From: a virus
Taxonomy: Duplodnaviria > Heunggongvirae > Uroviricota > Caudoviricetes
IMG/VR virus record: IMGVR_UViG_3300002835_000066
Coordinates: 1-64,000 of that record
Strand: one strand, 5' to 3'
DNA length: 64,000 bases
Part shown: one piece after another, positions 697-15,272 of the stretch
Layout of the letters: every line of letters begins with the position of its first letter
Numbering within the stretch: position 1 is the first letter of the stretch
Made by a program: the position numbers and the translations under genes
Notes under the pieces: generated by a model
Databases searched by the model: none
Seen by the model: the letters and a program-made list of their open reading frames with translations, nothing else
Told to the model about the DNA's origin: nothing

Positions 697-783
697 TGGT
701 GCGAGTAGCCGGACTCGAACCGGCACGCCACAAGGACACAAGATTTTAAGTCTCGGGCGTCTACCAATTCCGCCATACTCGCA
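697..783 (-). tRNA. tRNA-Leu (anticodon TAA). Type II, long variable arm. CCA encoded.
   Basis: Minus-strand sequence GCGAGTATGGCGGAATTGGTAGACGCCCGAGACTTAAAATC...GGTTCGAGTCCGGCTACTCGCACCA. Cloverleaf and anticodon loop cuUAAaa. Confidence 0.85.
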
Positions 784-884
784 TATCAAACTAGAAAATC
801 AACAATTAGAAAGAACTAGAAAGTTTTTCACTCTCTCTATGTTCTCACTATACGACATGTTGAGGGTAATGTCAAGAACTATTT

Positions 885-2000
885 TCAGACTCTGGGTAGG
901 AATGCACGATAGTTTAGGTTCTTGAAATTATGGTCTACAATCTTTTTAGCCTCAATCAAAAAAGTTTCTAATTCTACTTGATTAAGACTGCACAATCGTT
1001 CTACCTCATTGACTATCATCAACATGCGTTTGTTATCGTCGGTTTCGTTATCATATGATTCGTCTATCAATCCGTCAAACGTTTTATAGCCCATACTATG
1101 CAAGAGAGGTAAATTTTTTGCAGTACTCATTAATATAAAAGGATGTCTTTTTTGTATAGCTTTAAACGTTTTTTCGCACAACGCTGCTACATTTGGTAAC
1201 TCGTTTTCGTAGAAAATTGCGCCGCCGACAACACTAAAATAGCTATTAAGATAGTAATGATCTAGCGTGTTAGTAACTGGATTCATGTCGTCCGGATTCA
1301 TATCATCTAATATAAGATTAGGTAAATTTATGATCTCATCCTTGTGCCGTTCAAATAACTCTTTGGTAGCAGAGTCCTGAAACTGCATCATACGTTCCCA
1401 AAAGTTATCCCAAGTATTTCCCTCAAATGTTTGTAAGCTAACAAAACCATGGTCTAGTAGATTTCGTGTTTTTAAATGAGATATTAGAGATAATTTACAT
1501 CCTCTCCAACGTCTATTTAAACTTAAGAATTTTTTAGGATATTCTTTGAGTTGTAATGTGTTTAATACATTAGTAGGAGAAACGGAAACCCACCTCTCAT
1601 ACACACATATCCATTGTGATTTTATTTTTGGTAAATTTCTTACTAATGCAATATTGTCAACCACCTCATCAATTTTAGCATTCACACTCAGCAGCAATAT
1701 TGATTCTGCTGGAATAGCAAGTTCTTTGATCAAATAATCGTAGATAGCTTCGGGAACATCTATGAATGGTTCCCGCTCTGCTCCTATGCACAAAGTAATG
1801 TTATTGTTTCGTATTTCTTGCAGGATATGATTTGGAACTACGTCATTTAAATGACGCAATGATTTTCCATCAAAACAAGAAACAAGCCAATATGACTTGT
1901 CTGAAAAATTATAAAAAATGTCAAGAAAGGTATTATCAACTTTGACAGGAGCTTTTTCAGAATCTAGATAGTATGAATCATACTTATTGAGTATCGGCAT
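885..2000 (-). CDS. hypothetical protein (371 aa)
   Basis: Long ORF with no motif I can recognise. Confidence 0.5.
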   Translation of the reverse strand: MPILNKYDSYYLDSEKAPVKVDNTFLDIFYNFSDKSYWLVSCFDGKSLRHLNDVVPNHILQEIRNNNITLCIGAEREPFIDVPEAIYDYLIKELAIPAESILLLSVNAKIDEVVDNIALVRNLPKIKSQWICVYERWVSVSPTNVLNTLQLKEYPKKFLSLNRRWRGCKLSLISHLKTRNLLDHGFVSLQTFEGNTWDNFWERMMQFQDSATKELFERHKDEIINLPNLILDDMNPDDMNPVTNTLDHYYLNSYFSVVGGAIFYENELPNVAALCEKTFKAIQKRHPFILMSTAKNLPLLHSMGYKTFDGLIDESYDNETDDNKRMLMIVNEVERLCSLNQVELETFLIEAKKIVDHNFKNLNYRAFLPRV

Positions 2001-2014
2001 GTTTTATTTATACT

Positions 2015-2090
2015 TGGCACGGGAGGAGGGACTCGAACCCCCGGCACTCGGTTTTGGAGACCGATGCTCTACCAACTGAGCTACACCCGT
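2015..2090 (-). tRNA. tRNA-Trp (anticodon CCA). CCA encoded.
   Basis: ...GCTCAGTTGGTAGAGCATCGGTCTCCAAAACCGA...GGGGGTTCGAGTCCC...GCCA. Anticodon loop cuCCAaa, G73 discriminator. One U-U mismatch in the acceptor stem. Confidence 0.75.
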
Positions 2091-2096
2091 ACTTAA

Positions 2097-2489
2097 TTAA
2101 AAAGTGATTACGCCAGAGTCAATAACCGGATGTTCATCGTCTGTACGATCAACAATAGTGTAAGTGAACTTATAGGTTCCAAGTTCCTTTAGCATTTCTG
2201 CTACAGACTCAAGTTCAAAATCTTTGCACGAGTACAAATCAAACTTGTAATAACTTGGTTCACCTGACCAAAAATGTATTGATGAATGGCTGGTTGTAAT
2301 ACCTACCATCCCAGTTACGCCTTCATTACCCTCATCGTTACACCATACACAGATGGGATCAATTAAGACCTTCATGTCAACTGCTTCAACTAATCGATTG
2401 AACCAATCTTCAAGGAACGTAACGTACTCCGCTTGTGGAGCTTCATTTAGATATCCTGTAACTAGGATGTGCTTATTAACCTGTGCCAA
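2097..2489 (-). CDS. speD: S-adenosylmethionine decarboxylase proenzyme, small SpeH/SpeD-type
   Basis: 130 aa. Motif TTSHSSIHFWSGE matches the pyruvoyl-forming ESHxSIHTWPE cleavage motif of class 1 AdoMetDC. The size fits the small prokaryotic form. Confidence 0.6.
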   Translation of the reverse strand: MAQVNKHILVTGYLNEAPQAEYVTFLEDWFNRLVEAVDMKVLIDPICVWCNDEGNEGVTGMVGITTSHSSIHFWSGEPSYYKFDLYSCKDFELESVAEMLKELGTYKFTYTIVDRTDDEHPVIDSGVITF

Positions 2490-2569
2490 CTCATAAAATC
2501 CTTTCCAATATTAATTTTACTGTCAGATAGCGAATGATTATTTATCATTATGTGCGTAGTTTTAAAAAA

Positions 2570-2644
2570 TGGTACCTCGTGACGGGATTGAACCGCCGAC
2601 CTTATCCGTGTAAAGGATCTGCTCTACCGCTGAGCTAACGAGGC
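2570..2644 (-). tRNA. tRNA-Val (anticodon TAC)
   Basis: GCCTCGTTAGCTCAGCGGTAGAGCAGATCCTTTACACGGATAAGG...GGTTCAATCCCGTCACGAGGTACCA. Anticodon loop uuUACac. Confidence 0.8.
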
Positions 2645-2654
2645 ACGGTAAAAA

Positions 2655-2731
<77 letters not shown>

Positions 2732-2738
2732 TATATTC

Positions 2739-2814
2739 TGGTGGAGACACGGGGGTTCGAACCCCGGACCTACGGCTTGCAAAGCCGTCGCTCTACCAAC
2801 TGAGCTATATCCCC
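2739..2814 (-). tRNA. tRNA-Ala (anticodon TGC)
   Basis: GGGGATATAGCTCAGTTGGTAGAGCGACGGCTTTGCAAGCCGT...GGTTCGAACCCCCGTGTCTCCACCA. G3-U70 identity pair and A73. Confidence 0.85.
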
Positions 2815-2856
2815 ATGAAACTATTTATATCTTACTTACTCAACAAATAAAAAGAA

Positions 2857-2933
2857 TGGTGACCCTGGCAGGGCTCGAACCTGCAACCCCAAGTTTAGAA
2901 GACTCGTACTCTATCCAGTTGAGCTACAGGGCC
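2857..2933 (-). tRNA. tRNA-Arg (anticodon TCT)
   Basis: GGCCCTGTAGCTCAACTGGATAGAGTACGAGTCTTCTAAACTTGG...GGTTCGAGCCCTGCCAGGGTCACCA. Confidence 0.8.
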
Positions 2934-2991
2934 AATCTCTTAATTACTTTTGTAATATAGCAAGTATTGACCGATTTGTCAATAAGAAAGT

Positions 2992-3729
2992 TTAATTTTG
3001 GGCAGATAGAAATCTAGAAAGATTTTCTGCAATTTGCTTATGTCCCAACTCACTTGGATGAGGAGACTTTTCACATGGTTCTACCTTCATCTTGTCAATT
3101 GAACATTGCATAATATCGTTGTTATACCAGTTAAAATTAGTGTTAGAGTACCTTAGTTGTGACTCACTTAATGGATTTGTAAACCCTTCATGTATCATCG
3201 TAAACACATACTTGATACCATGTGCTTTAAAAAAGTTACCTAATGCAGATATTTGAGTGAAGAACTGCTGACCTACGGCTGCATCAGTGCTATACGCATA
3301 ATGTGTTCGGATAATATCTTCTTGTTCGGTGTCGCTAAGTTCCCTGTCTGCGCTGCGAAATATCACAACATCGTGCTTTGCAACAGCCCAATCATTAGTA
3401 TTATTGTCAAAGAATTCAAATCTACTAGGTTCCGACCATTGAATGGCTACAGTCCAATCAGACATGTCTTCGCCGGTTAATACTTTAGGAACAAAGAAGT
3501 CAAGAGTTTTTCTAACGATACGTGCATTAGAGCCGCAGCCTATGCTATGATTGTGAAATTCAGTGCAACCAAGCTTATCTGATAGATGCTTAGGCCATGT
3601 TATGTTTAGACGATGTTTGTTTATATCAGACTGATTATGTTCGTCAAGTAAAGAACCGTGTTCATCATGGAGAGTTTTAATTAACTCTCCGCCCCACGTA
3701 AACGAACATCCACTAGCAAACAACTTCAT
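2992..3729 (-). CDS. SGNH/GDSL-like hydrolase family protein, paralog 1
   Basis: 245 aa. N-terminal FASGCSFTWGG resembles GDSx block I. A later GCGSNARI block resembles the GxND block. Similar size and N-terminal motif to ORFs 4615-5364 and 14296-15051. Confidence 0.4.
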   Translation of the reverse strand: MKLFASGCSFTWGGELIKTLHDEHGSLLDEHNQSDINKHRLNITWPKHLSDKLGCTEFHNHSIGCGSNARIVRKTLDFFVPKVLTGEDMSDWTVAIQWSEPSRFEFFDNNTNDWAVAKHDVVIFRSADRELSDTEQEDIIRTHYAYSTDAAVGQQFFTQISALGNFFKAHGIKYVFTMIHEGFTNPLSESQLRYSNTNFNWYNNDIMQCSIDKMKVEPCEKSPHPSELGHKQIAENLSRFLSAQN

Positions 3730-3745
3730 GTCACGACCTTAAGAA

Positions 3746-3821
<76 letters not shown>

Positions 3822-3827
3822 GAATTT

Positions 3828-3902
3828 TGGCTCCCTAAGATGGATTCGAACCACCGACCAATTGATTAACAGTCAACTGCGCTACCGCTGCGCCATTAGG
3901 GA
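3828..3902 (-). tRNA. tRNA-Asn (anticodon GTT)
   Basis: TCCCTAATGGCGCAGCGGTAGCGCAGTTGACTGTTAATCAAT...GGTTCGAATCCATCTTAGGGAGCCA. Confidence 0.85.
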
Positions 3903-3953
3903 ATAAACTCTATAAACTATTTAATCTTGTTATAGCAGCTTGACAAATAAATG

Positions 3954-4520
3954 TCAAGCCGCTAATTGAACAATTCTACTGTGTTTGGGCACACCGCTCA
4001 ACAGATACTCCATTTGGTCAGCAAGAATGCTGCGGTTTTGGAGAATCATGTTTTCGTAGTGGTTGGGTGCGTACGGAATGTACAACAGTTCCATACGAGA
4101 TTCCTTCAAACTCTTACAACCCTTCTTTTGATTGCAAGGGATGCAAGCAGTAACAACGTTAGTCCATTCGTCAATACCACCGTGGTACCTAGGTACAATG
4201 TGGTCTCGACTTAACTTACTATGATTGCCTATTTGAACACCGCAGTATCCGCACATGTTACGGTCACGGGCAAACAGCGTCTTGTTAGTCAAGATAACTT
4301 TGTTGTGCTTTTTGAAGTTAAAACCTTCACCCTTAACAGCAATGATGCTGGGAGTTTCGATATAACTCTGCGTACCATCATCTTGATAGCCGCCTCTATA
4401 TCTAGCAATAACGTCGCCTAGAGTCCAGGCAACCAAGTTCTTTGCATGATACGAAATTGCTTCGTCGTGGGAGACCCACGTTCTTGGGATACCCGATACG
4501 TCTAAGGCTAGTACTGCCAT
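3954..4520 (-). mobile_element. free-standing HNH homing endonuclease gene inside the tRNA array
   Basis: 188 aa. CGYCG...RDHIVPRYHGG...NVVTACIPCNQKKG reads as CxxC...DHxxP...N...CxxC, the zinc-finger HNH motif. Confidence 0.75.
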
Positions 4521-4614
4521 GTTATGCTCCTTTTTTAAAAATATTTAGACTGTCTTTAATATATACACTATAATCGTACTTAACGCAACCGAAATCTATA
4601 AATATGTTGTTGTT

Positions 4615-5364
4615 CTATTTTACGGAAAACAAATTTTTATGGAAAGAAGATGTACTGAAATCTAAAAAATTATCATCAGTTAGATATGCATATACTGCAT
4701 CCGTTAAGACATGATGATTTTTTTCGTGTAGATGATTCAGTCTAAAATCATCGGGACCATATTTTGTTATAAAATCCCACAATGTGCCGTCAGAAAATTC
4801 GTTGCCACTAACTTCAATCAACGAAAAATTAGCATGTTTGGGGAAATGTTTTGCGATAGATGCTTCATCCACGTCTACACTAATTGATACCGTGTTATTA
4901 GGCAGGCTATGTAATGTATGTAATAGCATGTACCGTTGCGCCGAAATTAAATCTTGATTTTTTAGTAAAAACCAATCTTTGTAAAAATTCTTAAATCTAT
5001 TATAATGTTCATTCGATTCAGATAGGTTAGCTATCATTTGTCGCGGGGCAGCTTCAAAATACTCAGGAAACACTTTAGAAAATGTGAATGCTGCCCACAT
5101 CGGAACAAATTCTTCTGCAACAACCGGACTTCGATAGCTGTCTGTTAAAACAAATATGATCTGATCGTTTGGATCATAATCGTCCCCGGTTAAATATTCA
5201 AAAAATTTTAAGGTTGAATACTCAAACGAAGTACCACGCTCACCGTATGTTTTATATTCTATTCCTAACCTATCGGCTAGCATTTTAAACCAAGTCGAAT
5301 GAGTGGCATTTTTGGGGTCGCTGGGCCACTCAGCAGTAAAACTATCACCGAATAATACTAACAT
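4615..5364 (-). CDS. SGNH/GDSL-like hydrolase family protein, paralog 2
   Basis: 249 aa. N-terminus MLVLFGDSFTAEW is the GDSx block I motif, with the Ser in the expected place. Confidence 0.45.
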   Translation of the reverse strand: MLVLFGDSFTAEWPSDPKNATHSTWFKMLADRLGIEYKTYGERGTSFEYSTLKFFEYLTGDDYDPNDQIIFVLTDSYRSPVVAEEFVPMWAAFTFSKVFPEYFEAAPRQMIANLSESNEHYNRFKNFYKDWFLLKNQDLISAQRYMLLHTLHSLPNNTVSISVDVDEASIAKHFPKHANFSLIEVSGNEFSDGTLWDFITKYGPDDFRLNHLHEKNHHVLTDAVYAYLTDDNFLDFSTSSFHKNLFSVK

Positions 5365-5374
5365 CTGTAATCCT

Positions 5375-6004
5375 TCACTCGTACCAGTCCAAGTTTTTCA
5401 ATTGCTCCAGTATAGATATTTTATCAGACGGCCTAAACAGGTGATAGATTATCCACTGCTTAGTATCTTTTAATCTTATTGGTCCATATGATTCATGGAG
5501 ATGTATTTTTCTGCCAGGTCTAGACCACCATTGCCCGTCATCATCTATATATGACGTTAGGTAATTACTAGGATCATTGACTTTTACATATCTAGCAACG
5601 TTTTCGTAATTGTATTCATTGAATGATAAAAAGCATCCAGCCGCACCTAATGCGCTTACTTCATGATAGATCATATCCTTGATGTCACCGTGAGTATTTC
5701 CGCAATTTTTTCCAGGAATTGTGTAACTACGAACACCGCAGCAAATCATATTATCTATCTCGGATAGATAATATCCTTGACCGCATATAATTTGCTCATT
5801 TTCTTTGCAAATTACATAACCATTCAATGCACCGTCAAATCTTTTTTCTTTGTATAGCAGGTATAGAAAAGTATGAGGTTTGTTTTCCCAATCATTGTAC
5901 TCCATGTTTCTTGCTCCATCCCTAGAATCCAAATCAGCGTTTTTACAAAACTCTGCCAATTCCTCTAGAGGATAACTACTATCAATTTTAAAGAGTTTGC
6001 GCAT
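5375..6004 (-). CDS. hypothetical protein (209 aa)
   Basis: ORF only. Cys-rich (ICGQG...CCG...CGNTHG). Confidence 0.45.
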   Translation of the reverse strand: MRKLFKIDSSYPLEELAEFCKNADLDSRDGARNMEYNDWENKPHTFLYLLYKEKRFDGALNGYVICKENEQIICGQGYYLSEIDNMICCGVRSYTIPGKNCGNTHGDIKDMIYHEVSALGAAGCFLSFNEYNYENVARYVKVNDPSNYLTSYIDDDGQWWSRPGRKIHLHESYGPIRLKDTKQWIIYHLFRPSDKISILEQLKNLDWYE

Positions 6005-6641
6005 TTATGTTCAATCTTGCTCGTGCGGCTTCTAAATTTTCGCTGAATAATTCATCATAGTTTTCAGCGAGAAGAAATTTAGCTTGTTTACCGTTTTGAT
6101 ATGCAGTCAACATCAACATCACATTGCGTTTGGTAACACCATACTTCAACAAGATAGCAAAACTTACTAAAAACCAACCAATAGATTTTGTTTGTGCAAA
6201 CGAAAACATCGCAAGCCTCATTTCTCCGATATCATTAGCAGGATAACCGGTAAGTGTATGCCATGTGTCGTGCGTGTCTCTGTATCTTCTTGCCATCCAG
6301 TTGTATGGATGTTTAGCCTCAATCCAATCATTATTTTTATTTTTTCTTCTACTTATTTTAAGCAGAATCTCTTGGTTGGGAAATAAATTATGACATTCTT
6401 TACCAACAGAACTGTTTGGCCTTTCAGCTAATGTGCCAAAGTAACTAGAAATTTCTTCTGAATCATATGCCGTTCTACCACCATAAGAAGTTTGAAGTAA
6501 TTTAGAGTATGTCCACTTAAGAGAAGGCGAATTTGTTGAGTGCAGTATTTCAAAAACAAAAATTGTATTTGTAGGATTTTTGCGCAACTTTTTAAATACT
6601 TTGTATGTCCTAAGTAAGTCAATTTTATATTTTAGATGCAT
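5988..6641 (-). CDS. Coq4-family protein (ubiquinone biosynthesis COQ4-like). HDxxH(x)11E metal motif present.
   Basis: 217 aa. DTHDTWHTLTGYPANDIGE matches the Coq4 signature HDxxHx11E exactly. Confidence 0.5.
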   Translation of the reverse strand: MHLKYKIDLLRTYKVFKKLRKNPTNTIFVFEILHSTNSPSLKWTYSKLLQTSYGGRTAYDSEEISSYFGTLAERPNSSVGKECHNLFPNQEILLKISRRKNKNNDWIEAKHPYNWMARRYRDTHDTWHTLTGYPANDIGEMRLAMFSFAQTKSIGWFLVSFAILLKYGVTKRNVMLMLTAYQNGKQAKFLLAENYDELFSENLEAARARLNINAQTL

Positions 6642-7383
6642 TTACCACAGTCCTAAGTTTCATATGAATCTTCTTTACTTCGGTAGAATTTGCTAGAAAC
6701 GTATTGAAATTGCCGTTTGGTTCTAAATCGTACATGTAAAGATGTTCATGTGTAAAAAGATATTTTAAAGTTGAGTTATAATATAATTCATAGGATGCTA
6801 CTATATCTTCCGCTCCTAAGAATGTTTCATCAAATCGAAACGATTCGGCACATTGTCTAGAATACAATAAAATTCTATTCCACGGAAGATGGTTTACCAT
6901 AAACTTTCCCAATGCAATCAAATTAAGTGCTTCTCTACCGTCTATTCCTGCGAATGAGTAGATATCAGAACTTTCAAAAAACTCTTGTACCATATACTGT
7001 TTACCTTGATATGTCATAGGATTGTTAGTAAGACCAAGAATATCTATATTAGGATTGTTTTGTATTATACTATGAATCTTATCGATGGCATTTGGAGTAA
7101 GATAATCATCACCATCTATTTGCGTGAGGTAATCATATTCTGTATTGAGAAAGAAATCGAGAACAGAGTTTTTACCCATTGCGGGAGTACCGTTAGATAT
7201 GGTAACCTCATATCTAATACCATATTTTTTACAAGTGTGTTGAGCAGACGTTGCGTATTGTGTATCCGCAGTGTTTATGATCACAACAATATCACTTAGT
7301 GGTGTTTGTTGTAATACGGATTTGATGCAGCGTTCAAGCTTGTCAATTTTATCTGATGTTAATATGGCGACTAGCGTATTCAT
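6625..7383 (-). CDS. glycosyltransferase family 2
   Basis: The true start is probably the internal Met (MNTLVAILTSDK..., cat at 7381-7383), because the longer ORF would overlap tRNA-Leu(GAG). IVVIINTAD and QIDGDDY (DxD) motifs are typical of GT-A/GT2. Confidence 0.65.
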   Translation of the reverse strand: MNTLVAILTSDKIDKLERCIKSVLQQTPLSDIVVIINTADTQYATSAQHTCKKYGIRYEVTISNGTPAMGKNSVLDFFLNTEYDYLTQIDGDDYLTPNAIDKIHSIIQNNPNIDILGLTNNPMTYQGKQYMVQEFFESSDIYSFAGIDGREALNLIALGKFMVNHLPWNRILLYSRQCAESFRFDETFLGAEDIVASYELYYNSTLKYLFTHEHLYMYDLEPNGNFNTFLANSTEVKKIHMKLRTVVNASKI

Positions 7384-8356: not shown

Positions 8357-8926
8357 GTGACGCTGGGCTACCCTGTAAAATTAAAAAAAATATCTTTATT
8401 GATAAATAATATCATGAACAACATTATTACACCCTTAACCAACGTAGACTTTACTGCATGTATTGAAGAACTCAAGTCACACTTGGAACTTCGTATAATA
8501 GCCGTGCCGTCAGCAGAAGCTTGGACTGATATTTATTACTTCATGGTAACAGGGGCAGAGTTACCCATAACAGCTAATGTTCTTGCGGGACTAAATTTAT
8601 CAATAATAAATGTATTATACCTCGAAACGCAAGGAGGAAATGAATACTATCAGGGAACAACGCCTAATAGTTGTATTGTACTTCCTTTAGAAGAAATAGG
8701 GTCAACTGTCAGTGCTTATTCTGCGCCGTTAAATTCACCTAGACTACCTGACTATCCAAACGGTTATCATCCAGAAGATTGTACCTTAATTGAAAGTCAT
8801 TCAGCAGATGAACCGGTATTTCTTGGTTGTGCAATTGAAAATGCTGAACTTGTATATTCTTTCCAAGTTCCGAAAGACAAAATTTACAAGTCAATTGTTA
8901 TTTTCTTCAGTGAAGACACATTATAA
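8357..8926 (+). CDS. hypothetical protein (plus strand, 189 aa)
   Basis: ORF only. The start may be the internal Met at 8414. Confidence 0.35.
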   Translation: MTLGYPVKLKKISLLINNIMNNIITPLTNVDFTACIEELKSHLELRIIAVPSAEAWTDIYYFMVTGAELPITANVLAGLNLSIINVLYLETQGGNEYYQGTTPNSCIVLPLEEIGSTVSAYSAPLNSPRLPDYPNGYHPEDCTLIESHSADEPVFLGCAIENAELVYSFQVPKDKIYKSIVIFFSEDTL

Positions 8927-8949
8927 GTAATTCGTCTTAGTCAACTCAC

Positions 8950-9035
8950 TGGTGCCCCGAGAGGGACTTGAACCCCCACGCCCTAAGGGCAAAAGATTTT
9001 GAATCTTCCGCGTCTACCGATTCCACCATCGGGGC
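8950..9035 (-). tRNA. tRNA-Leu (anticodon CAA). Type II.
   Basis: GCCCCGATGGTGGAATCGGTAGACGCGGAAGATTCAAAATCTTTT, variable arm, GGGGGTTCAAGTCCCTCTCGGGGCACCA. Confidence 0.85.
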
Positions 9036-9223
9036 AGTAAATTGATCCGGTTTGTTTACATGTACGATAGCTGGCGGATATCATGATCCCCTATGTAACA
9101 TGGTTCAGCAGCCGGAACTGCTTAGTAGTGTCGGTTCAGCAGTTCAGGTACTTGTTTATAGACCCTCATAGTGTGCCTTGAAGCATCGTTCTAGACCGAT
9201 GACTTCTTCCGATTTCTGAAATT

Positions 9224-9309
9224 TGGTGCGGATGAAGGGACTCGAACCCCCACACCATTACGATACCAGTACCTAAAACTGGGGCGTCTACCAATTCCGC
9301 CACATCCGC
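9224..9309 (-). tRNA. tRNA-Leu (anticodon TAG). Type II.
   Basis: GCGGATGTGGCGGAATTGGTAGACGCCCCAGTTTTAGGTACTGG, variable arm, GGGGGTTCGAGTCCCTTCATCCGCACCA. Confidence 0.85.
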
Positions 9310-9314
9310 AATCT

Positions 9315-9842
9315 TTATAACCACCAAAGCAAACTGTTAGGTAAGTCTTGTGGTCTAATCGTATACCATATAGGCAACGTATATCTTAATCCATTACTAA
9401 CTTGTGTAACACCATGCTCAAGTTTATGACCATTGTATGCTACAACTCTTCCGGGCTTAGGTTGAACTTCAACTTTTTCTCCGTTAGACCTAGTAATAAA
9501 AGTTTGTCCCCCATCAAAATTATCATTTAGATAGAGAACACTTGTGCATAATCCCCATTCACCTGCTTGCATATCACGATGAGCCATATGCTCATTTTGT
9601 CTGCATTCAATGTGGGCACGTTGCACCATTAAATTCTCAGGTACATGTTTCATTATGAGTGAAACTTTCTCTCTAATGAAATCATCTACCGGTTTGCGTG
9701 TATAATGAGGGACAATCGCTTTGAACGGATAGTTATATCCGTGATCGGTTTCTAGCAGAGAACTTGTGTAGTAGGCAATTAAGCTATCACAGTCCTCAAT
9801 GCTCAACACATCATCAAGTATTGTTACTTCATCATCAAACAT
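9315..9842 (-). CDS. 2OG-Fe(II) oxygenase superfamily protein (prolyl 4-hydroxylase-like)
   Basis: 175 aa. An HxD...H arrangement (HMAHRDMQ ... YNGHKLEHGV) and overall resemblance to the small P4Hc-type oxygenases of marine phages. Confidence 0.55.
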   Translation of the reverse strand: MFDDEVTILDDVLSIEDCDSLIAYYTSSLLETDHGYNYPFKAIVPHYTRKPVDDFIREKVSLIMKHVPENLMVQRAHIECRQNEHMAHRDMQAGEWGLCTSVLYLNDNFDGGQTFITRSNGEKVEVQPKPGRVVAYNGHKLEHGVTQVSNGLRYTLPIWYTIRPQDLPNSLLWWL

Positions 9843-9988
9843 AATGTATTTACTCGCCGTAACTAGTGTCTCAAATTTAGTTACCGATACTAACTCAATA
9901 GTACTGCTACGGACATCAGGTACACTCCTGTTTGGTTTGAGAATGAAACAGGGTCACATATGGTCACCGTACACACACGAGTAAAATT

Positions 9989-10064
9989 TGGTGCTCCCAG
10001 ACGGGTTCGAACCGCCGACACCCTGATCTTCAATCAGGTGCTCTACCAACTGAGCTACAGGAGC
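9989..10064 (-). tRNA. tRNA-Phe (anticodon GAA)
   Basis: GCTCCTGTAGCTCAGTTGGTAGAGCACCTGATTGAAGATCAGG...GGTTCGAACCCGTCTGGGAGCACCA. Confidence 0.85.
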
Positions 10065-10071
10065 ATTTAAA

Positions 10072-10148
10072 TGGCGATCTGTACGGGACTTGAACCCGTG
10101 ACCTTTGGCGTGACAGGCCAACGCTCTAACCAACTGAGCTAACAGACC
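10072..10148 (-). tRNA. tRNA-Asp (anticodon GTC)
   Basis: GGTCTGTTAGCTCAGTTGGTTAGAGCGTTGGCCTGTCACGCCAA...GGTTCAAGTCCCGTACAGATCGCCA. Confidence 0.85.
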
Positions 10149-10155
10149 AATGAAT

Positions 10156-10503
10156 TTATGTTGTTTTATTGTTCTTATGCCACTGTCCATAAAAACAGTG
10201 TAGCATTTCGTGACCTACAAATTCAGGCTGATACTCAACTTTGGGATCAACCATATGTATCGTACATGTATCAAACGGTGGCTTAAGTTCACTAAACGCT
10301 ATGACATCTTTAGATGCAACATCTGCTCTATTACCTAGTACTTTCTGTAAATCAGCTTGTGATTTATAAGTGACAATTTTAATTTGCACTGTAGATTTTT
10401 CATATTGCTTTTCACCAAACCTATATCCATCGGCACCTTTCTGAGGCGCGGGATTACAACTGGTTAACAATAACAGTGCTACTAAAGATACTTTTTTAAA
10501 CAT
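10156..10503 (-). CDS. small lipoprotein with an HExxH zinc-metallopeptidase-like motif
   Basis: 115 aa. Lipobox LLLTSC. VGHEMLHCFYGQWH contains HExxH. Confidence 0.45.
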   Translation of the reverse strand: MFKKVSLVALLLLTSCNPAPQKGADGYRFGEKQYEKSTVQIKIVTYKSQADLQKVLGNRADVASKDVIAFSELKPPFDTCTIHMVDPKVEYQPEFVGHEMLHCFYGQWHKNNKTT

Positions 10504-10529
10504 AGAATAATTCCTCCTATGCTATTTAT

Positions 10530-10604
10530 TGGTAGCCCGAACGGGTTCCGACCCCGCTTCTCTGCCTTGAAAGGGCAGTGTCCTAGCCACTAGACGACCG
10601 GGCC
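10530..10604 (-). tRNA. tRNA-Glu (anticodon TTC)
   Basis: GGCCCGGTCGTCTAGTGGCTAGGACACTGCCCTTTCAAGGCAG...GTCGGAACCCGTTCGGGCTACCA. The T-loop has G54 (GTCGGAA). Confidence 0.75.
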
Positions 10605-10610
10605 ATATTT

Positions 10611-10686
10611 TGGTGGAGCCTACGGGGATTGAACCCGTGACCTTCTGTCTGCCAGACAGATGCTCTCCCAGCTGAGCTAAAGCCCC
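10611..10686 (-). tRNA. tRNA-Ala (anticodon GGC)
   Basis: GGGGCTTTAGCTCAGCTGGGAGAGCATCTGTCTGGCAGACAGA...GGTTCAATCCCCGTAGGCTCCACCA. G3-U70 and A73 Ala identity elements. Confidence 0.8.
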
Positions 10687-10695
10687 AAAATTTTA

Positions 10696-12054
10696 TTATT
10701 TGTATAGCCAACCAAGCTCAGGAAACGTCTTCATGAAATCGGTTCCTCTGACTCTATCCATATTAGAATATTCTCGCATATGCTTCAAATGGTCTTCTGT
10801 AGGTTGAACAAAAAATTCCATATCCTGCTGATTCATTTTTCGCAGTTCTTTTATTTTGTTGATTCCTTCGTTGAGCATTTCAGTTTTTACTACATAATAC
10901 TCTGTGTTAGCAATAATAGTATCGCAATACCAAACTTGAAACTCGTCCAATGATAGTTCAACCATTTCCCAATGTTCTTGTGGCATGTTAATAATACTAA
11001 GATGATTTGGATTTCTTAACAAATTACAAAATAGGAAATATTCAAAAATTGCGTTTTTGTCCTGTGCCATAGAAAACTGATACGCTTGCTTATCTATAAT
11101 TTCTTGCATCATTTCTTTCAAGCGATGAACATTGAGAGAACTTATCACCGGCGAATATACTAGCAGGTGAGTCATTTCATCCTCGTTGCGTAGTTGCTCA
11201 AATGACTCTTGAATCTTCTTAAGATTTTCTGATATAGTTTCCCAATCACCGGGCCAGCGTATGTAATTGAATCTGTCGTGTACTTCGTCTACGCTTGCTA
11301 TTACAACAACAGACTTAAACTGTTTCCAGTAGTCTAGTATATGTTTATCTTTATAGCGAAGTGTGCTGCAATTAGAGGAGTATCTTAATTCTACCTCTTT
11401 ACATCTGTTATTTTCTATTAGTCTATCAAGCGTGTACCAGTGATATTCTGATAACAGTGGCTCGCCGCCTGCAAAGTATATAGTTTCAACACTTTCTATA
11501 TTATCATCTATCAACTTATATGCTAGAGTTTTATCCTGTGGCTCAATAAATTTTGTTCCTACAATCGGATAACCTAACTTGTTCATCAAATCAAACCAAC
11601 TAGAACTTAAATCATGATTGCAAGTAATACATGCTTGATTGCATTTATTAGTGAACCTAAAATCAAGATATTTTAGTTTATTAGTTTTCAACTCTCCTGA
11701 CGGGAGAAGTTTATCCATGTACTCATCATAGTTTTTAGAATAGTTTGCATTGGCTATTGTTCTAGCACTAGACTTACTGAACTTTTCTGTGTCATAACAA
11801 AAAGAACAAGCGGGATTTTTCTCCCCTTGAACCATATTCTTTCTAAATTCTTTATACCGTTCTCCGTTCCACACTGAGTTCCAGTCAGAAACTTCATTGA
11901 TGTTTCCTAAAGATTCTTTTGACATATCGCCTACACAACAGGGCATAACATTGCCGTTCGGGGAGACATAAGTGTGTAGAAGACCTAACATACAGAATGT
12001 TGGATTAGAATTTAAATTATGCTCTTTAGTCATACACGAGTATTTATTCAGCAT
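10696..12054 (-). CDS. radical SAM enzyme with an N-terminal SPASM/twitch-like Cys-rich domain (domain order reversed)
   Basis: Start placed at the internal Met (MLNKYSC..., cat at 12052-12054), because the longer ORF overlaps two tRNA-Pro genes. Residues 20-90 read CMLG...NGNVMPCC...GN...W...NPACSFC, a SPASM/twitch-like pattern. The radical-SAM CxxxCxxC box FTNKCNQACITCN follows. A GGEP-like FAGGEPLL SAM-binding motif is also present. Confidence 0.6.
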   Translation of the reverse strand: MLNKYSCMTKEHNLNSNPTFCMLGLLHTYVSPNGNVMPCCVGDMSKESLGNINEVSDWNSVWNGERYKEFRKNMVQGEKNPACSFCYDTEKFSKSSARTIANANYSKNYDEYMDKLLPSGELKTNKLKYLDFRFTNKCNQACITCNHDLSSSWFDLMNKLGYPIVGTKFIEPQDKTLAYKLIDDNIESVETIYFAGGEPLLSEYHWYTLDRLIENNRCKEVELRYSSNCSTLRYKDKHILDYWKQFKSVVVIASVDEVHDRFNYIRWPGDWETISENLKKIQESFEQLRNEDEMTHLLVYSPVISSLNVHRLKEMMQEIIDKQAYQFSMAQDKNAIFEYFLFCNLLRNPNHLSIINMPQEHWEMVELSLDEFQVWYCDTIIANTEYYVVKTEMLNEGINKIKELRKMNQQDMEFFVQPTEDHLKHMREYSNMDRVRGTDFMKTFPELGWLYK

Positions 12055-12073
12055 ATGAGGGTACTCTATAAAC

Positions 12074-12152
12074 TGGTCGGGAATGTAGGATTCGAACCTA
12101 CGATCTCCTGGCCCCAAACCAGGCGGATTAAACCAGACTTTCCTAATTCCCG
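12074..12152 (-). tRNA. tRNA-Pro (anticodon TGG), second copy with a divergent D-arm
   Basis: CGGGAATTAGGAAAGTCTGGTTTAATCCGCCTGGTTTGGGGCCAGGAGATCGTAGGTTCGAATCCTACATTCCCGACCA. Acceptor and T arm are identical to the copy at 2655-2731. Confidence 0.6.
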
Positions 12153-12158
12153 TTGAAT

Positions 12159-12235
12159 TGGTCGGGGTAGCCGGATTTGAACCGACGACCACTTGTCCCC
12201 CAGACAAGTGCGCTACCAGGCTGCGCTATACCCCG
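12159..12235 (-). tRNA. tRNA-Pro (anticodon GGG)
   Basis: CGGGGTATAGCGCAGCCTGGTAGCGCACTTGTCTGGGGGACAAG...GGTTCAAATCCGGCTACCCCGACCA. Confidence 0.85.
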
Positions 12236-12242
12236 TTGGGTT

Positions 12243-12330
12243 TGGTGGAGTCGGTGAGATTCGAACTCACGGTACCTTTCGGTACGCTACCTTTCCAAGA
12301 TAGTCTAATCGGCCACTCTAGCACGACTCC
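12243..12330 (-). tRNA. tRNA-Ser (anticodon GGA). Type II.
   Basis: GGAGTCGTGCTAGAGTGGCCGATTAGACTATCTTGGAAAGGTAG, long variable arm, GTGAGTTCGAATCTCACCGACTCCACCA. Confidence 0.8.
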
Positions 12331-12468
12331 TTGAAATGGCGCGCCCGCTTTTTTTCTATACTGGGGCTACTTTCGGAAGGTAGTCCATGTATGCGGACGC
12401 ATAAGATTGGAGGGCAGCGGTAACGGTTGTTCGTCACTATTGCAGTGGGTATCACTCGCCGCCATAAG

Positions 12469-12660
12469 TTAAAGTCCGAGAAAATGCATTACTAGCTTGA
12501 AGGGCCAGACATGTTCCCAGAGAAAGTGTTCTAATGGATAGCTGATAGTTACGCCAATCCAAAATCTATAATCAGTAATCAAATTTGAACACGAATTCAT
12601 ACACCGAACTAACAGTCCGGTCTTCTTATCTTCGTGATAATGTGGTTCATGTTCTTTCAT
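12469..12660 (-). CDS. possible small ORF (63 aa, His-rich N-terminus MKEHEPHYHEDKK) in the 400-bp gap inside the tRNA array
   Basis: The ORF-track entry 12469..12855 overlaps tRNA genes. Only the part below 12729 can be coding. No motif support. Confidence 0.2.
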   Translation of the reverse strand: MKEHEPHYHEDKKTGLLVRCMNSCSNLITDYRFWIGVTISYPLEHFLWEHVWPFKLVMHFLGL

Positions 12661-12728
12661 ACAATGTCTATCTCTTTGTGCATATACTAGTATACTATAT
12701 ATCAAGCAGCTTGTCAACCTAGTAATAA

Positions 12729-12803
12729 TGGTACACCCTACTGGGTTTGAACCAGTGACCTTTTCCATGTCAAGGAAATGCTCTACCGCTGAGCTAAGGG
12801 TGC
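12729..12803 (-). tRNA. tRNA-Val (anticodon GAC)
   Basis: GCACCCTTAGCTCAGCGGTAGAGCATTTCCTTGACATGGAAA...GGTTCAAACCCAGTAGGGTGTACCA. Confidence 0.85.
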
Positions 12804-12810
12804 ATGAAAC

Positions 12811-12888
12811 TGGGGTGAAAGACGGGACTCGAACCCGCGACATTCGGTACCACAAACCGACGCTCTAACCAACTGAGCTACAATCACC
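12811..12888 (-). tRNA. tRNA-His (anticodon GTG) with an encoded G-1 opposite C73
   Basis: G-GTGATTGTAGCTCAGTTGGTTAGAGCGTCGGTTTGTGGTACCGA...GGTTCGAGTCCCGTCTTTCACCCCA. The extra 5' G and C73 are the His hallmark. Two U-U mismatches in the acceptor stem. Confidence 0.75.
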
Positions 12889-12894
12889 ATAAAC

Positions 12895-12968
12895 TGGCAT
12901 ACGCTGTAGGAGTCGAACCCACGCTAACTGGGTTGGAACCAGTCGTGCTACCGTAACACTTAGCGTAC
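12895..12968 (-). tRNA. tRNA-Trp (anticodon CCA), second and divergent copy
   Basis: GTACGCTAAGTGTTACGGTAGCACGACTGGTTCCAACCCAGT...GGTTCGACTCCTACAGCGTATGCCA. G73. Confidence 0.6.
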
Positions 12969-12975
12969 ATGAAAT

Positions 12976-13052
12976 TGGTGCCCGCGGAAGGATTCGAACC
13001 TCCGACCCTCAGATTCGTAATCTGATGCTCTATCCAGCTGAGCTACGCGGGC
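12976..13052 (-). tRNA. tRNA-Arg (anticodon ACG)
   Basis: GCCCGCGTAGCTCAGCTGGATAGAGCATCAGATTACGAATCTGA...GGTTCGAATCCTCCGCGGGCACCA. Confidence 0.85.
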
Positions 13053-13059
13053 ATTAACT

Positions 13060-13136
13060 TGGTGGACCCTGAGGGATTCGAACCCCCGACATTCTGTTTC
13101 GAAGACAGACGCTCTATCCAGCTGAACTAAGGGTCC
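13060..13136 (-). tRNA. tRNA-Arg (anticodon TCG)
   Basis: GGACCCTTAGTTCAGCTGGATAGAGCGTCTGTCTTCGAAACAGA...GGTTCGAATCCCTCAGGGTCCACCA. Confidence 0.8.
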
Positions 13137-13149
13137 GATAAATAATAGC

Positions 13150-14235
13150 ATGAATATTTACTACGTAGACTTAATCCCGTATTTTAACCTCTATCATGAA
13201 TTTACAATTCCTAAAGGCATTGAAAGGGTGAAAGCATTAATCAGTGACAAAGATAACAAAATAATACTATCTGCGGTATGGGAAATATGGCCGCATGAAA
13301 AAATCCTAACTGCACTAGAAATACTAGGAGTTACTCCTAATCAAGACAATGTTGTGCTACTGTTAGATGTTTATAGTTACAGCGAACCCAATCATTGGAC
13401 CACTGTAAATACCGTATTATATGATTCTTTGCTGTGTAGAGTACATAAATCAGAGAATCCTGAGTTTGGTCCTAATCTAGACAATGACAAAATATTGTTT
13501 AAAATAGGAACTCCTTATAAAAAACAACGAATATTTACATTATACGATTTGTACCAGCGAAATGAACTCGCTAAGTGCGAATGGTCATTGCATTACGGGT
13601 CTCATCTAGAAGATGCAGTGCGTTGTTATTTGCCTAATATGTCTGATGATGCGTATCAAAGATTTATAACCGATACTGTTAGAAAAATTGATGATGTCTC
13701 ACCAAACTTTGGAACGGGCACTACTAATTTTTATCCAATTGCGTTTAGCCCTACAGCCGAAATGTATGCTAAAACGGCTGTTAGTTTAGTTACTGAAACT
13801 ACATTTCATCCTGAGTATTACTGGTTTATCACAGAAAAAACTTGGAAAACAATTAATAATTTTCATCCCTTCGTGCTAATAGGCTACAAAAAAACGTATG
13901 AATATTTGCATTCCTTAGGATTTGATACCTTTCAGTATGCAGTAAAACATCCATATGAAACATTAGTAGGACCAGAAGAAGATGTAATTAGAATGTGCGT
14001 TGACAATGTGTTGCATTTATTAAGCAACAAAGATCTGCATAGAGACAAACTCACTAAATCCGTGATTAACAATAAAAAAGTATTTACTGATTTAGCAGAC
14101 ACGTATAACAACAAAGTAAACCCATACATAGAAGATTTGATTTGGAATCACTCACTTCAAAAAGTGAGTGATGACCATTCTGTAGAAGTTTATGAAAAAC
14201 TTTGGGGCAAGTATGGTGCTGTTGGAGAGGATTGA
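13150..14235 (+). CDS. hypothetical protein (plus strand, 361 aa)
   Basis: Long ORF convergent with the tRNA array. No motif I recognise. Confidence 0.45.
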   Translation: MNIYYVDLIPYFNLYHEFTIPKGIERVKALISDKDNKIILSAVWEIWPHEKILTALEILGVTPNQDNVVLLLDVYSYSEPNHWTTVNTVLYDSLLCRVHKSENPEFGPNLDNDKILFKIGTPYKKQRIFTLYDLYQRNELAKCEWSLHYGSHLEDAVRCYLPNMSDDAYQRFITDTVRKIDDVSPNFGTGTTNFYPIAFSPTAEMYAKTAVSLVTETTFHPEYYWFITEKTWKTINNFHPFVLIGYKKTYEYLHSLGFDTFQYAVKHPYETLVGPEEDVIRMCVDNVLHLLSNKDLHRDKLTKSVINNKKVFTDLADTYNNKVNPYIEDLIWNHSLQKVSDDHSVEVYEKLWGKYGAVGED

Positions 14236-14289
14236 ACTCTCGACCTCTTCATTACCAATGAAGTGCTACTACCACTGAGCTACAACAGC
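14217..14289 (-). tRNA. tRNA-Thr (anticodon GGT). CCA not encoded.
   Basis: GCTGTTGTAGCTCAGTGGTAGTAGCACTTCATTGGTAATGAAG...GAGAGTTCAATCCTCTCCAACAGCA. Confidence 0.7.
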
Positions 14290-14295
14290 GTCATG

Positions 14296-15051
14296 CTATT
14301 TATTAGAAATATTTGACCAAATATATTTGGCTAAAAATTCATTAAAGTCTTTACCGCTATGCACTAGATCTCTTGCTAGTTCACTGCATGAAGTGTTGGC
14401 ACGTAGTACAGATATTTGATCAGGAATAGCATATAAGTTTACTCCGTGCTTAGTAGTCAATTGTCGTAACATAATTTCTAACAGTAGAAACTTTGTATTA
14501 TTGTATCCGAATGTGTCGGATAAAATCATAAAATCACGTAAATCATTATTGTCTTTTGCAGACCACGGCCCTTCAAATGATATCGTTTTATTTTGGGATA
14601 TCAATGGAAATCTAGACATTCCTGTTTGTTGAAATACAATTGTTTTTGGAGGATTGAAATTAGTAAGTAACCAAACTAGGTTTAAAAAGCTAACTTCGTT
14701 AGAGGAACCTCCTAATCCCATATTGTAGACGGGAATTCCTGCTAAATTTTCAAGATGACAAGAATACGTATCTTCATGATGAATCCCAGTACCCATAGTA
14801 TGTGAACAGCCTATTGTCACGATATAGGGGGCGTGTTGAATAACATCTAAAGAATGATGATTTCTGAAACCATAATTGTCAGACTTATATGTAAGCTGAA
14901 CTAGCGAATCGTAGTATTTCCAAGATTCACCTAATCTTGCTCGATTGGTGAAAAACTTTTCTTTGGAATCACTGCCATAAAAGTGAAAAGTAGTGTTCTC
15001 TACTAGAGCAATTCTATTGCCATAAAAAATAGGAAAAGTATGTTGTAACAT
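14296..15051 (-). CDS. SGNH/GDSL-like hydrolase family protein, paralog 3
   Basis: 251 aa. TIGCSHTMGTG in the block I position and GLGGSSNEVS in the block III position. Confidence 0.35.
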   Translation of the reverse strand: MLQHTFPIFYGNRIALVENTTFHFYGSDSKEKFFTNRARLGESWKYYDSLVQLTYKSDNYGFRNHHSLDVIQHAPYIVTIGCSHTMGTGIHHEDTYSCHLENLAGIPVYNMGLGGSSNEVSFLNLVWLLTNFNPPKTIVFQQTGMSRFPLISQNKTISFEGPWSAKDNNDLRDFMILSDTFGYNNTKFLLLEIMLRQLTTKHGVNLYAIPDQISVLRANTSCSELARDLVHSGKDFNEFLAKYIWSNISNK

Positions 15052-15071
15052 GCAAGCAGCCTTACTCTCTT

Positions 15072-15145
15072 TGGATGCCCCACGAGGACTCGAACCTCGA
15101 TTGACGGAGTCAAAGTCCGCTCTCTTACCATTAGAGGATGGGGCA
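15072..15145 (-). tRNA. tRNA-Gln (anticodon TTG)
   Basis: TGCCCCATCCTCTAATGGTAAGAGAGCGGACTTTGACTCCGT...GGTTCGAGTCCTCGTGGGGCATCCA. U1-A72 is typical of Gln. Confidence 0.8.
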
Positions 15146-15196
15146 GCATCAATATACGTGTATTATATATGCTCTATAGAGCAATGTCAAATATTT

Positions 15197-15272
15197 TGGA
15201 TGCCCGACTAGGGCTCGAACCTAGAACCTACTGAGTCAGAGTCAGTCGATCTACCAATTGATCTATCGGGCA
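15197..15272 (-). tRNA. tRNA-Gln (anticodon CTG)
   Basis: TGCCCGATAGATCAATTGGTAGATCGACTGACTCTGACTCAGT...GGTTCGAGCCCTAGTCGGGCATCCA. Confidence 0.8.

Follow-up and report, generated by a model that had tools for sequence, protein, structure and literature searches.

A tRNA gene array of an uncultured large tailed phage and its long-armed tRNA(UAU)

The DNA analysed here (the window) comprises positions 1 to 64,000 of the IMG/VR record IMGVR_UViG_3300002835_000066, assigned to the Caudoviricetes, and between positions 697 and 15272 it carries a dense island of tRNA genes interspersed with protein-coding genes. ARAGORN finds 28 tRNA genes in the island, every one on the minus strand, and the Rfam model RF00005 returns the identical set at its gathering threshold, with scores of 48.5-73.6 bits against a cut-off of 29. 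The cloverleaf and the anticodon loop are canonical in all 28 genes called by both programs, and a permissive Rfam scan of positions 1-16500 revealed no RNA beyond these 28 apart from cross-hits on the tRNAs themselves. tRNA sequence accounts for 2198 bases of the 14576-base island, and 13 of the 27 spacers between the genes measure 4-10 nt. The genes are therefore genuine tRNAs in a phage, co-oriented and spaced closely enough to fit polycistronic transcription, as is expected of a phage tRNA cluster. As a large-phage tRNA cluster the island belongs to a known and ordinary kind; the lineage that carries it is new and uncultured.

An earlier reading of the same letters without database searches (the sequence-only reading) had folded 28 tRNA genes by hand, and both programs give exactly this number at matching coordinates. 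Its 26 distinct anticodons are recovered, with four isoacceptors for Leu, three each for Arg and Thr and two each for Pro, Ala, Val and Gln, as are the duplicated anticodons Pro(TGG) and Trp(CCA), each present twice. The gene sequences also bear out the G3:U70 pair in both tRNA-Ala genes and the encoded G-1 of tRNA-His, which stands opposite C73 and is kept in four relatives described below. The HNH endonuclease and the accessory enzymes that it had placed among the tRNAs were confirmed by their Pfam families. Three details need correction. The genes represent 15 specificities, where 14 amino acids had been counted. The CCA end, said to be absent from two genes, is present in 28 of 28; in both tRNA-Gln genes CCA comes after U73, a feature that may be the source of the miscount. 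The list of amino acids lacking a gene in the window (Met, Ile, Lys, Gly, Cys and Tyr) stands except for Ile, since the gene at 7497-7590 has the anticodon UAU, for the codon AUA. As a separate observation, both tRNA-Gln genes combine U1:A72 with the discriminator U73, where bacteria usually have G73, and this combination may bear on which enzyme charges them.

The sequence-only reading had expected the array to continue elsewhere, and two contigs extend it past the left edge of the window. Among many metagenome contigs that encode the 371-aa protein of 885-2000 we found one, L081, that is 99.97% identical to positions 1-12000 and reaches 1.5 kb further; beginning 18 nt past position 1, it adds tRNA-Tyr(GTA), tRNA-Met(CAT) and tRNA-Ser(TGA), with Rfam scores of 54.7-57.9 bits. 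A further contig, L337, shares 771 nt at 100% identity with the end of L081 and adds tRNA-Ser(GCT), tRNA-Cys(GCA), tRNA-Ile(GAT), tRNA-Lys(TTT) and tRNA-Lys(CTT). With window, L081 and L337 taken together, the phage has no fewer than 36 tRNA genes, and these serve 19 amino acids. DNA of this phage is present in the metagenomes JGI 3300042503, 3300001282 and 3300020575 and ENA ERZ27272032. By simple wobble rules, the 26 anticodons of the window read 71% of the codons in the window genes, and the three genes at the edge raise this to 78%. Coverage reaches 100% with seven further anticodons, five of them confirmed for this phage and two, both for Gly, present in the relative L093 alone, which carries Gly(TCC) and Gly(GCC) further along its array. 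The extended array plus the Gly genes of the relatives would cover all 61 sense codons. About 5 kb past the left edge, directly after tRNA-Lys(CTT), we also noted a 92-nt tRNA-like element (L337:3219-3310) that has an acceptor-like stem (GGGGAAAG/CUUUCCCC) and a good T arm and lacks CCA; ARAGORN assigns it a 2-nt 'anticodon' and Rfam makes no call.

Relatives were retrieved with a flavin-binding protein encoded just beyond the window edge. MetK was rejected as a marker for this purpose: it is a widely shared metabolic gene that pulled in unrelated phages and has no taxonomic use. Four relatives, L087 (IMG/VR 3300032116_000900), L088, L090 (UViG_3300042377_000534) and L093 (3300043548_000155), show 75-93% amino-acid identity to the window phage on the flavin-binding protein and carry 34-38 tRNAs within 16-21 kb in essentially the order of the window. 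The proteins that they share with the island are few, namely the HNH endonuclease and the S-adenosylmethionine (AdoMet) decarboxylase (in L087, L090 and L093), the DUF481 protein (in L087 and L090) and one small open reading frame (ORF). Missing from them are the radical SAM gene, the Coq4/family-2 glycosyltransferase (GT2) block, DUF6071, ORF371, ORF361 and ORF251, and because most of the window's cargo genes are lacking, their arrays are about 40% shorter for the same tRNAs. A fifth contig, L091 (3300044701_000569; 357,559 bp), is more distant, with another tRNA order and without the long-armed tRNA(UAU) described below. The comparison shows a stable tRNA backbone and a turnover of the protein genes carried along it. 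In the relatives the HNH gene occupies the same position at 76-91% amino-acid identity; it is a long-term resident and not a recent invader.

Dense tRNA arrays also exist in bacteria, and contigs of Pyrinomonadaceae carry 20-27 tRNAs in 8 kb, so that one may ask whether the island is a cellular array, a segment of a bacterial chromosome or plasmid that was binned as viral. We consider this extremely unlikely. The same 64-kb window contains virion structural and tail-fibre genes matching PHROG families as well as an ORF of 3191 aa typical of large phages, identical DNA is found in IMG/VR viral contigs, related arrays are carried by IMG/VR contigs as long as 357 kb, and an Rfam search of the window gave no rRNA or other cellular RNA. 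At the DNA level the island has no counterpart among deposited phage genomes: positions 1-16000 have no nucleotide similarity to 50,697 phage records beyond single tRNAs. A jumbo genome (>200 kb) is plausible for this phage: contigs of 353-358 kb share single genes with it at 59-79% amino-acid identity (the 357,559-bp L091, and one of 352,754 bp through a tail-fibre-like protein). The contigs found of this same phage are at most 14 kb long, and about 70 kb (window plus extension) gave no match to a terminase, portal, capsid or DNA polymerase.

The sequence TTGACA-N17-TATAnT occurs in the window as six exact matches, against 0.05 expected from shuffles, all of them on the minus strand. The sixth is at 28574-28602, whereas the other five belong to the island, run in the direction of the tRNA genes and stand ahead of several tRNA groups. 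Three of them are found again between the same tRNAs in L087 or L090; their hexamers are kept there and their spacers changed. Terminator-like sites are not enriched in the window. Consensus sigma-70 promoters that run along the tRNAs point to the host polymerase. Genes that it transcribes are usually expressed in the early or middle period, and the tRNAs of T4 and T5 are transcribed early or in the middle period. The island is thus probably transcribed by the host sigma-70 polymerase, and the same promoters suggest that housekeeping promoters of the host follow the TTGACA/TATAAT consensus. Late expression does not fit promoters of the host type, and the proposal of the sequence-only reading that the phage rewrites codon usage late in infection is not supported; the set also includes tRNAs for rare codons. 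Under the mechanism that we propose, host sigma-70 RNA polymerase would begin, early in infection or midway through it, to make several polycistronic precursors, from which host RNase P and 3' exonucleases would release the tRNAs, and the encoded CCA would make CCA addition unnecessary.

The second copies of the duplicated tRNAs differ from the first in unlike ways. Pro(TGG) copy 2 is 81% identical to copy 1, with the last 30 nt the same; its anticodon stem has changed from CCUGC/GCAGG to CCUGG/CCAGG, a compensatory change, and the changes in the D stem are likewise compensatory. At its position L087 has an unrelated tRNA-Pro(CGG). Trp copy 2 (12895-12968) is 51% identical to copy 1, and the two differ at anticodon-loop positions 32 and 38 (CUCCAAA versus UUCCAAC); copy 2 is 100% identical in L090 and 89% identical in L087, there with compensated changes in the acceptor stem. 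The two Trp genes possibly derive from different sources. Recent duplication with decay had been raised as one of two possibilities for the divergent copies, and if Pro(TGG) copy 2, Trp copy 2 and Thr(CGT) were pseudogenes, their somewhat lower Rfam scores of 52-62 bits (61.4 at 12077-12152, 52.2 at 12898-12968 and 61.8 at 8281-8351, respectively, where the best genes reach 74) and the enlarged D loop of Pro(TGG) copy 2 would be accounted for. We find this very improbable: all three lie far above the 29-bit threshold, the Pro and Trp copies keep every stem through compensatory changes, Trp copy 2 is conserved in two relatives, and Thr(CGT) is found in L087 and L088. On this comparison the duplicates do not appear to be decaying.

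A related observation was made just outside the left edge of the window. Compared with L085:7390-7490 and L081:12011-12111, the contig L086 has at 7768-7868 a very divergent allele in place of tRNA-Tyr, next to an identical flanking 371-aa protein; the allele retains the anticodon arm, its T loop is non-canonical (GGAUCGAUACC), and neither ARAGORN nor Rfam calls it. The patterns of duplicates and alleles would be in keeping with selection that favours variants of the tRNA body, a kind of selection proposed in connection with escape from defences that target tRNAs (PMC10264068, PMC11555353).

What the array is for can be approached from codon usage. At 40% G+C, the window genes favour codons ending in A or U, a preference matched by island tRNAs with U34 for GCA, GAA, CAA, AGA, ACA, GTA, TTA, CTA, CCA and ATA. 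In addition, AUA makes up 24% of the Ile codons of the window genes and has its own dedicated tRNA, and the jumbo phage XacN1 has been reported to fit a compensation model (PMC5852040). These observations speak for selective codon compensation, the view of the sequence-only reading, in which the phage carries tRNAs for codons that it uses often and the host rarely, and thereby boosts late-gene translation. We give this explanation some weight and lean against it. The cognate codons of Thr(CGT), Arg(TCG) and Pro(GGG) are among the rarest of the phage (relative synonymous codon usage 0.32 for ACG, 0.66 and 0.20 for CGA and CGG, and 0.54 for CCC), the extended set approaches a full standard complement, unlike a tuned subset, and the promoters are of the host sigma-70 type and not obviously late. 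In its make-up (G34 and U34 with some C34) the set is like the usual bacterial complement, nearly complete.

Phage tRNAs have been shown to evade defences that target tRNAs (PMC10264068, PMC11555353), and an array could likewise serve mainly to replace cleaved or depleted host tRNAs with variants that anticodon nucleases miss. The two very different Trp(CCA) genes with distinct anticodon-loop flanks, both conserved, the remodelled anticodon stem and D arm of Pro(TGG) copy 2 and the divergent Tyr allele of L086, with the same anticodon arm beside an identical protein, are what such a role would lead one to expect. As the main function it seems unlikely to us, since known nucleases each hit one or a few tRNAs and some 36-40 tRNAs exceed what would be needed against them. 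The common denominator that we favour is translation freed from the tRNA pool of the host, of which codon matching and defence evasion may be non-exclusive benefits.

Taken as a whole, the island very probably makes up two-thirds, on the upstream side, of an array of 36 or more co-oriented tRNA genes in an uncultured large tailed phage. The host would transcribe this array, which would serve both as a near self-sufficient decoding set and as a landing pad for cargo. The decoding set would match the A/U-ending codon usage of the phage, with its 40% G+C, translation by the phage could continue whether the host tRNA pool is poorly matched, depleted or cleaved, and the array would double as a landing site for accessory genes and for the resident HNH endonuclease. 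Several points weigh against this interpretation. A tRNA for Gly was not seen in window, L081 or L337, that is, for this exact phage. The promoters are predicted from matches to a consensus, and weaker promoter-like sites are not enriched in the window (62 versus 52.7 +/- 8.5). The antisense ORFs at 8357-8926 and 13150-14235 would interrupt or oppose long transcripts. Finally, tRNA-His (12811-12887, minus strand) has the G-1:C73 pair but U.U mismatches at 5:68 and 6:67; in the relatives it has one or two acceptor mismatches at positions 4-6.

Clusters of this kind are known from other phages. T4 has 8 tRNAs and T5 about 24, with HNH homing endonucleases among them. The Xanthomonas jumbo phage XacN1 carries 56 tRNAs for all 20 amino acids, located in its terminal repeats (PMC5852040). 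The array described here resembles these clusters in its tightly packed, co-oriented tRNAs with small ORFs and an HNH gene between them, in its near-complete coverage of the amino acids and in the translation-related and metabolic accessory genes that accompany it, and differs in that its HNH gene is a stable resident and not a sporadic invader.

One gene of the array departs from the ordinary. In the 94-nt tRNA(UAU) at 7497-7590 the acceptor, D and T stems measure 7, 4 and 5 bp, the anticodon loop reads CUUAUAU and the 3' end is A73-CCA; its variable region of about 24 nt contains a 4-bp hairpin with the 7-nt loop CAGAUUA. In the window and in three relatives (L087:5714-5804, L090:4195-4288 and L093:4002-4095) this loop is invariant while the stems covary. 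To find further members we searched for the pattern CCAGATTAG-N6-14-GGTTCRAATCC, which comprises the arm loop, its closing pair and the T arm and contains no anticodon. At least 120 viral contigs, 4-247 kb in length, contain the pattern; overall it was found in over 150 loci, most of them viral. Among the viral matches listed, all 110 tRNAs with the motif that ARAGORN calls have the anticodon TAT (87 distinct sequences of 88-96 nt), and 8 of the 10 remaining loci are visibly of the same type with a TTATA loop. One genome from each of 185,579 bacterial and archaeal species yielded 39 matches; 28 of the 28 called by ARAGORN are UAU and five more were recognised by eye. Bacterial matches lie mostly in dense tRNA arrays of metagenome-assembled genomes (MAGs), 13 of them from Pyrinomonadaceae, and the scan of species representatives found the exact motif in no Lactobacillus or Mycoplasma genome. 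Among 697 tRNAs in loci fetched independently of the motif, 14 of 14 TAT tRNAs are long-armed. Cultured carriers are Lactobacillus phage LpeD (L216:278-369), the Synechococcus phages S-SRM01 (MW015081.1:32944-33031) and S-SKS1 and, with a variant loop and annotated as tRNA-Ile, Levilactobacillus phage ENFP1; the tRNA is unannotated in the records of the first three (3 of 4).

Two sets of bacterial contigs were noted alongside. In the acidobacterial contigs L220-L248 (Pyrinomonadaceae and Blastocatellia, including the chromosome OZ243957.1) 11-27 tRNAs stand within 8 kb together with a long-armed tRNA(UAU). In L223, L245 and L253, contigs of Solimonas and Pseudomonadota MAGs, the variable region takes a two-hairpin form that ARAGORN misses, with a hairpin of the type GGUCCC-UUCG-GGGACC ahead of the CAGAUUA arm.

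The structure of the family is supported by covariation and not by folding energy, as the thermodynamic fold of the 94-nt tRNA alone is not distinctive (z = -0.83). When the extra arm is anchored on its loop, without an alignment, the closing pair is C:G and the next three positions outward are paired in 99%, 99% and 97% of cases, the first and the third of them switching among GC, UA, CG, AU and UG; shifted registers pair in 13-55% only. In an alignment of 59 members 97.1% of the paired cells are paired, against 68.4% in shuffles, and 22 of 25 pairs, including three of the four in the extra arm, show changes on both sides; this alignment was fitted to a covariance model and hence leans toward structure. 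The 7-bp acceptor and the 5-bp T stem are 100% paired in the 59 sequences, and the 4-bp D stem of the window's subtype is 99.6% paired. There are at least two body types, that of the window and another in which the D stem has 3 bp and the anticodon stem is longer. UAU, U33 and A37 are invariant; of the identity elements of bacterial tRNA-Ile, A73 is found in at least 77 of 115 sequences, and C4:G69 and U12:A23 in 42 and 48 of the 59. The base-paired long variable arm is a class II feature; a class II (Leu, Ser or Tyr) anticodon together with a 3-bp D stem was not found, UAU being the anticodon of every member. A comparison with the phage's own Ile(GAU), Met, Thr and Asn tRNAs gave no informative resemblance.

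Two other foldings were considered and rejected. Read as the true anticodon arm, the extra arm would have a loop without U33 or a purine at 37 and would leave a variable loop of 2 nt, whereas the UAU loop is canonical. An 8/4 allo-tRNA reading of 7497-7590 fails on the 7-bp acceptor and the 5-bp T stem, both fully paired.

Bacterial tRNA-Ile(UAU) that decodes AUA without lysidine has been described in Mycoplasma mobile (PMC3575796) and, as cited in PMC9976931, in Lactobacillus plantarum (Tomikawa 2018). The phage tRNA resembles these in UAU, U33, A37 and A73 and in AUA decoding that would be independent of TilS. The M. mobile and L. plantarum tRNAs are ordinary class I molecules with a short variable loop, unlike the phage tRNA with its 4-bp extra arm and CAGAUUA loop. 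A long variable arm combined with the anticodon UAU is also seen in the nematode nev-tRNA-Ile(UAU), which is eukaryotic and charged with Leu in vitro (PMC3333845, PMC4300185), and in bacterial allo-tRNA(UAU), whose acceptor/T branch is split 8/4 or 9/3 and which mostly has G73 or U73 (PMC5389517). The phage family differs from both in its 7/5 branch (100% paired, n=59), in A73 in most members and in the invariant arm loop. We found no description of a phage long-variable-arm tRNA-Ile(UAU) in the open-access literature, which, given that scope, is weak evidence of novelty; apparently it is an undescribed type of phage tRNA.

AUA usage, together with an alignment in which three AUA codons of the phage MetK fall on I, V or L in homologues, makes normal Ile decoding the simplest reading. 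An alternative is that another synthetase charges the tRNA, as with nematode nev-tRNA(UAU), and that AUA would be deliberately mistranslated. No constant protein partner emerged when the 793 ORFs within 5 kb of the tRNA were clustered across the motif-bearing viral loci, the commonest neighbours being HNH endonucleases, in 24 and 16 loci; any partner is therefore probably a host factor. The CAGAUUA loop equals the anticodon loop of tRNA-Ile(GAU) save at positions 33 and 37, a likeness that is a lead and not evidence. One possibility is that the loop is an added determinant for isoleucyl-tRNA synthetase (IleRS), and another that it blocks U34-modifying enzymes or methionyl-tRNA synthetase (MetRS); if either is true, phages could read AUA in any host without the lysidine-forming TilS. 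We put forward only tentatively, and would not be surprised to see it fail, the view that the long-armed tRNA(UAU) stands for an undescribed class of AUA decoders, widespread and carried mostly by phages, whose CAGAUUA loop is a sequence-specific recognition element for a conserved bacterial factor.

The features of the island are collected in Table 1. Six of its ORFs have no family match, and a PHROG search of ten island ORFs was informative for the radical SAM protein only. In that protein the usual order of domains is reversed, SPASM (residues 72-137 of the long ORF) being N-terminal to the core (185-337). The rest of the window likewise has the look of a large phage with many accessory genes, and its ribonucleotide reductase and MetK genes form, with the virion and tail-fibre matches, the phage context of the island. 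It encodes a phosphomannomutase, an AAA ATPase, two B12-binding radical SAM proteins, a RimK-type ATP-grasp enzyme, a redoxin, an SPFH protein, the SAM synthetase MetK, both ribonucleotide reductase subunits, a class II aldolase and tail-fibre and virion structural proteins. Genes related to SAM or to translation are concentrated at 2097-2489, 10696-12054, 20506-22422, 22465-23358, 25502-27106 and 28948-30093, and comprise a SAM synthetase and a SAM decarboxylase, the RimK-type enzyme and three radical SAM enzymes, of which two are B12-binding; the RimK family glutamylates ribosomal protein S6. Within 38582-48677 two tail-fibre-like paralogues (39781-42006 and 42374-43966, minus strand) both have an N-terminal PHROG 2295 region, and three tandem Laminin_G_3 paralogues (46403-48677, minus strand) are followed by giant ORFs of 3191 and 1219 aa (48647-61933, minus strand) without a family match.

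Table 1. Features of the tRNA island in window coordinates, with strand and supporting evidence
Feature	Position	Strand	Evidence or remark
tRNA-Leu(TAA), 86 nt, CCA encoded	697-782	-	ARAGORN, Rfam 57.1 bits
Sigma-70-type promoter TTGACA-N17-TATAGT, just upstream of Leu(TAA)	847-875	-	kept in L087 and L090, spacer changed
ORF of 371 aa, without family match, lineage-specific	885-2000	-	Pfam/PHROG search, relatives
tRNA-Trp(CCA) copy 1	2015-2090	-	ARAGORN, Rfam 68 bits
AdoMet decarboxylase (SpeD-like), kept in relatives	2097-2489	-	PF02675 E=2.4e-12
tRNA-Arg(TCT), -Ala(TGC), -Pro(TGG), -Val(TAC)	2857-2933, 2739-2814, 2655-2731, 2570-2644	-	spacers 42, 7 and 10 nt
Sigma-70-type promoter TTGACA-N17-TATATT, upstream of Arg-Ala-Pro-Val cluster	2954-2982	-	
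DUF6071 protein, lineage-specific cargo	2992-3729	-	Pfam
tRNA-Asn(GTT), -Thr(TGT)	3828-3902, 3746-3821	-	spacer 6 nt
HNH endonuclease, 188 aa	3954-4520	-	Pfam HNH_5 (E=1.6e-11), HNH
Four-gene cargo block: ORF249, ORF209, Coq4-like, family-2 glycosyltransferase	4615-7383	-	not in relatives
Coq4-like protein	5988-6641	-	Pfam
Family-2 glycosyltransferase	6625-7383	-	Pfam
tRNA-Leu(GAG)	7407-7492	-	Rfam 49.1 bits
Long-armed tRNA(UAU), 94 nt	7497-7590	-	ARAGORN, Rfam 60.3 bits
DUF481 (outer-membrane beta-barrel family) protein, kept in relatives	7592-8248	-	Pfam
tRNA-Thr(CGT)	8278-8351	-	Rfam 61.8 bits
ORF of 189 aa, without family match	8357-8926	+	
tRNA-Leu(TAG), -Leu(CAA)	9224-9309, 8950-9035	-	ARAGORN, Rfam
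2OG-Fe(II) oxygenase	9315-9842	-	PF13640 E=2.5e-10
tRNA-Asp(GTC), -Phe(GAA)	10072-10148, 9989-10064	-	spacer 7 nt
tRNA-Ala(GGC), -Glu(TTC)	10611-10686, 10530-10604	-	spacer 6 nt
Radical SAM protein with SPASM domain, lineage-specific cargo	10696-12054	-	Pfam
tRNA-Ser(GGA), -Pro(GGG), -Pro(TGG) copy 2 (79 nt)	12243-12330, 12159-12235, 12074-12152	-	
Sigma-70-type promoter TTGACA-N17-TATACT, after Val(GAC)	12689-12717	-	kept in L090
tRNA-Arg(TCG), -Arg(ACG), -Trp(CCA) copy 2, -His(GTG), -Val(GAC), tightly clustered	12729-13136	-	all spacers 7 nt
ORF of 361 aa, without family match	13150-14235	+	
tRNA-Thr(GGT)	14214-14289	-	Rfam 66.3 bits
ORF of 251 aa, without family match	14296-15051	-	
tRNA-Gln(CTG), -Gln(TTG)	15197-15272, 15072-15145	-	both U1:A72, U73
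Promoter TTGACA-N17-TATAAT, perfect 12/12, between the Gln genes	15162-15190	-	kept in L087
Sigma-70-type promoter TTGACA-N17-TATAGT, upstream (right-hand) end of the array, ahead of the first tRNA	15927-15955	-	

The array adds one more large phage with an almost complete set of tRNAs, from an uncultured aquatic lineage. A fixed tRNA backbone with fast turnover of the genes between the tRNAs and with conserved promoters of the host type fits tRNA arrays that act as early-expressed modules of autonomy and as hot spots of gene gain. The long-armed tRNA(UAU) is a more interesting lead than the array itself. If the loop of its extra arm acts as a recognition signal, tRNA identity elements would gain a new member, and the loop would explain how phages decode AUA across hosts.

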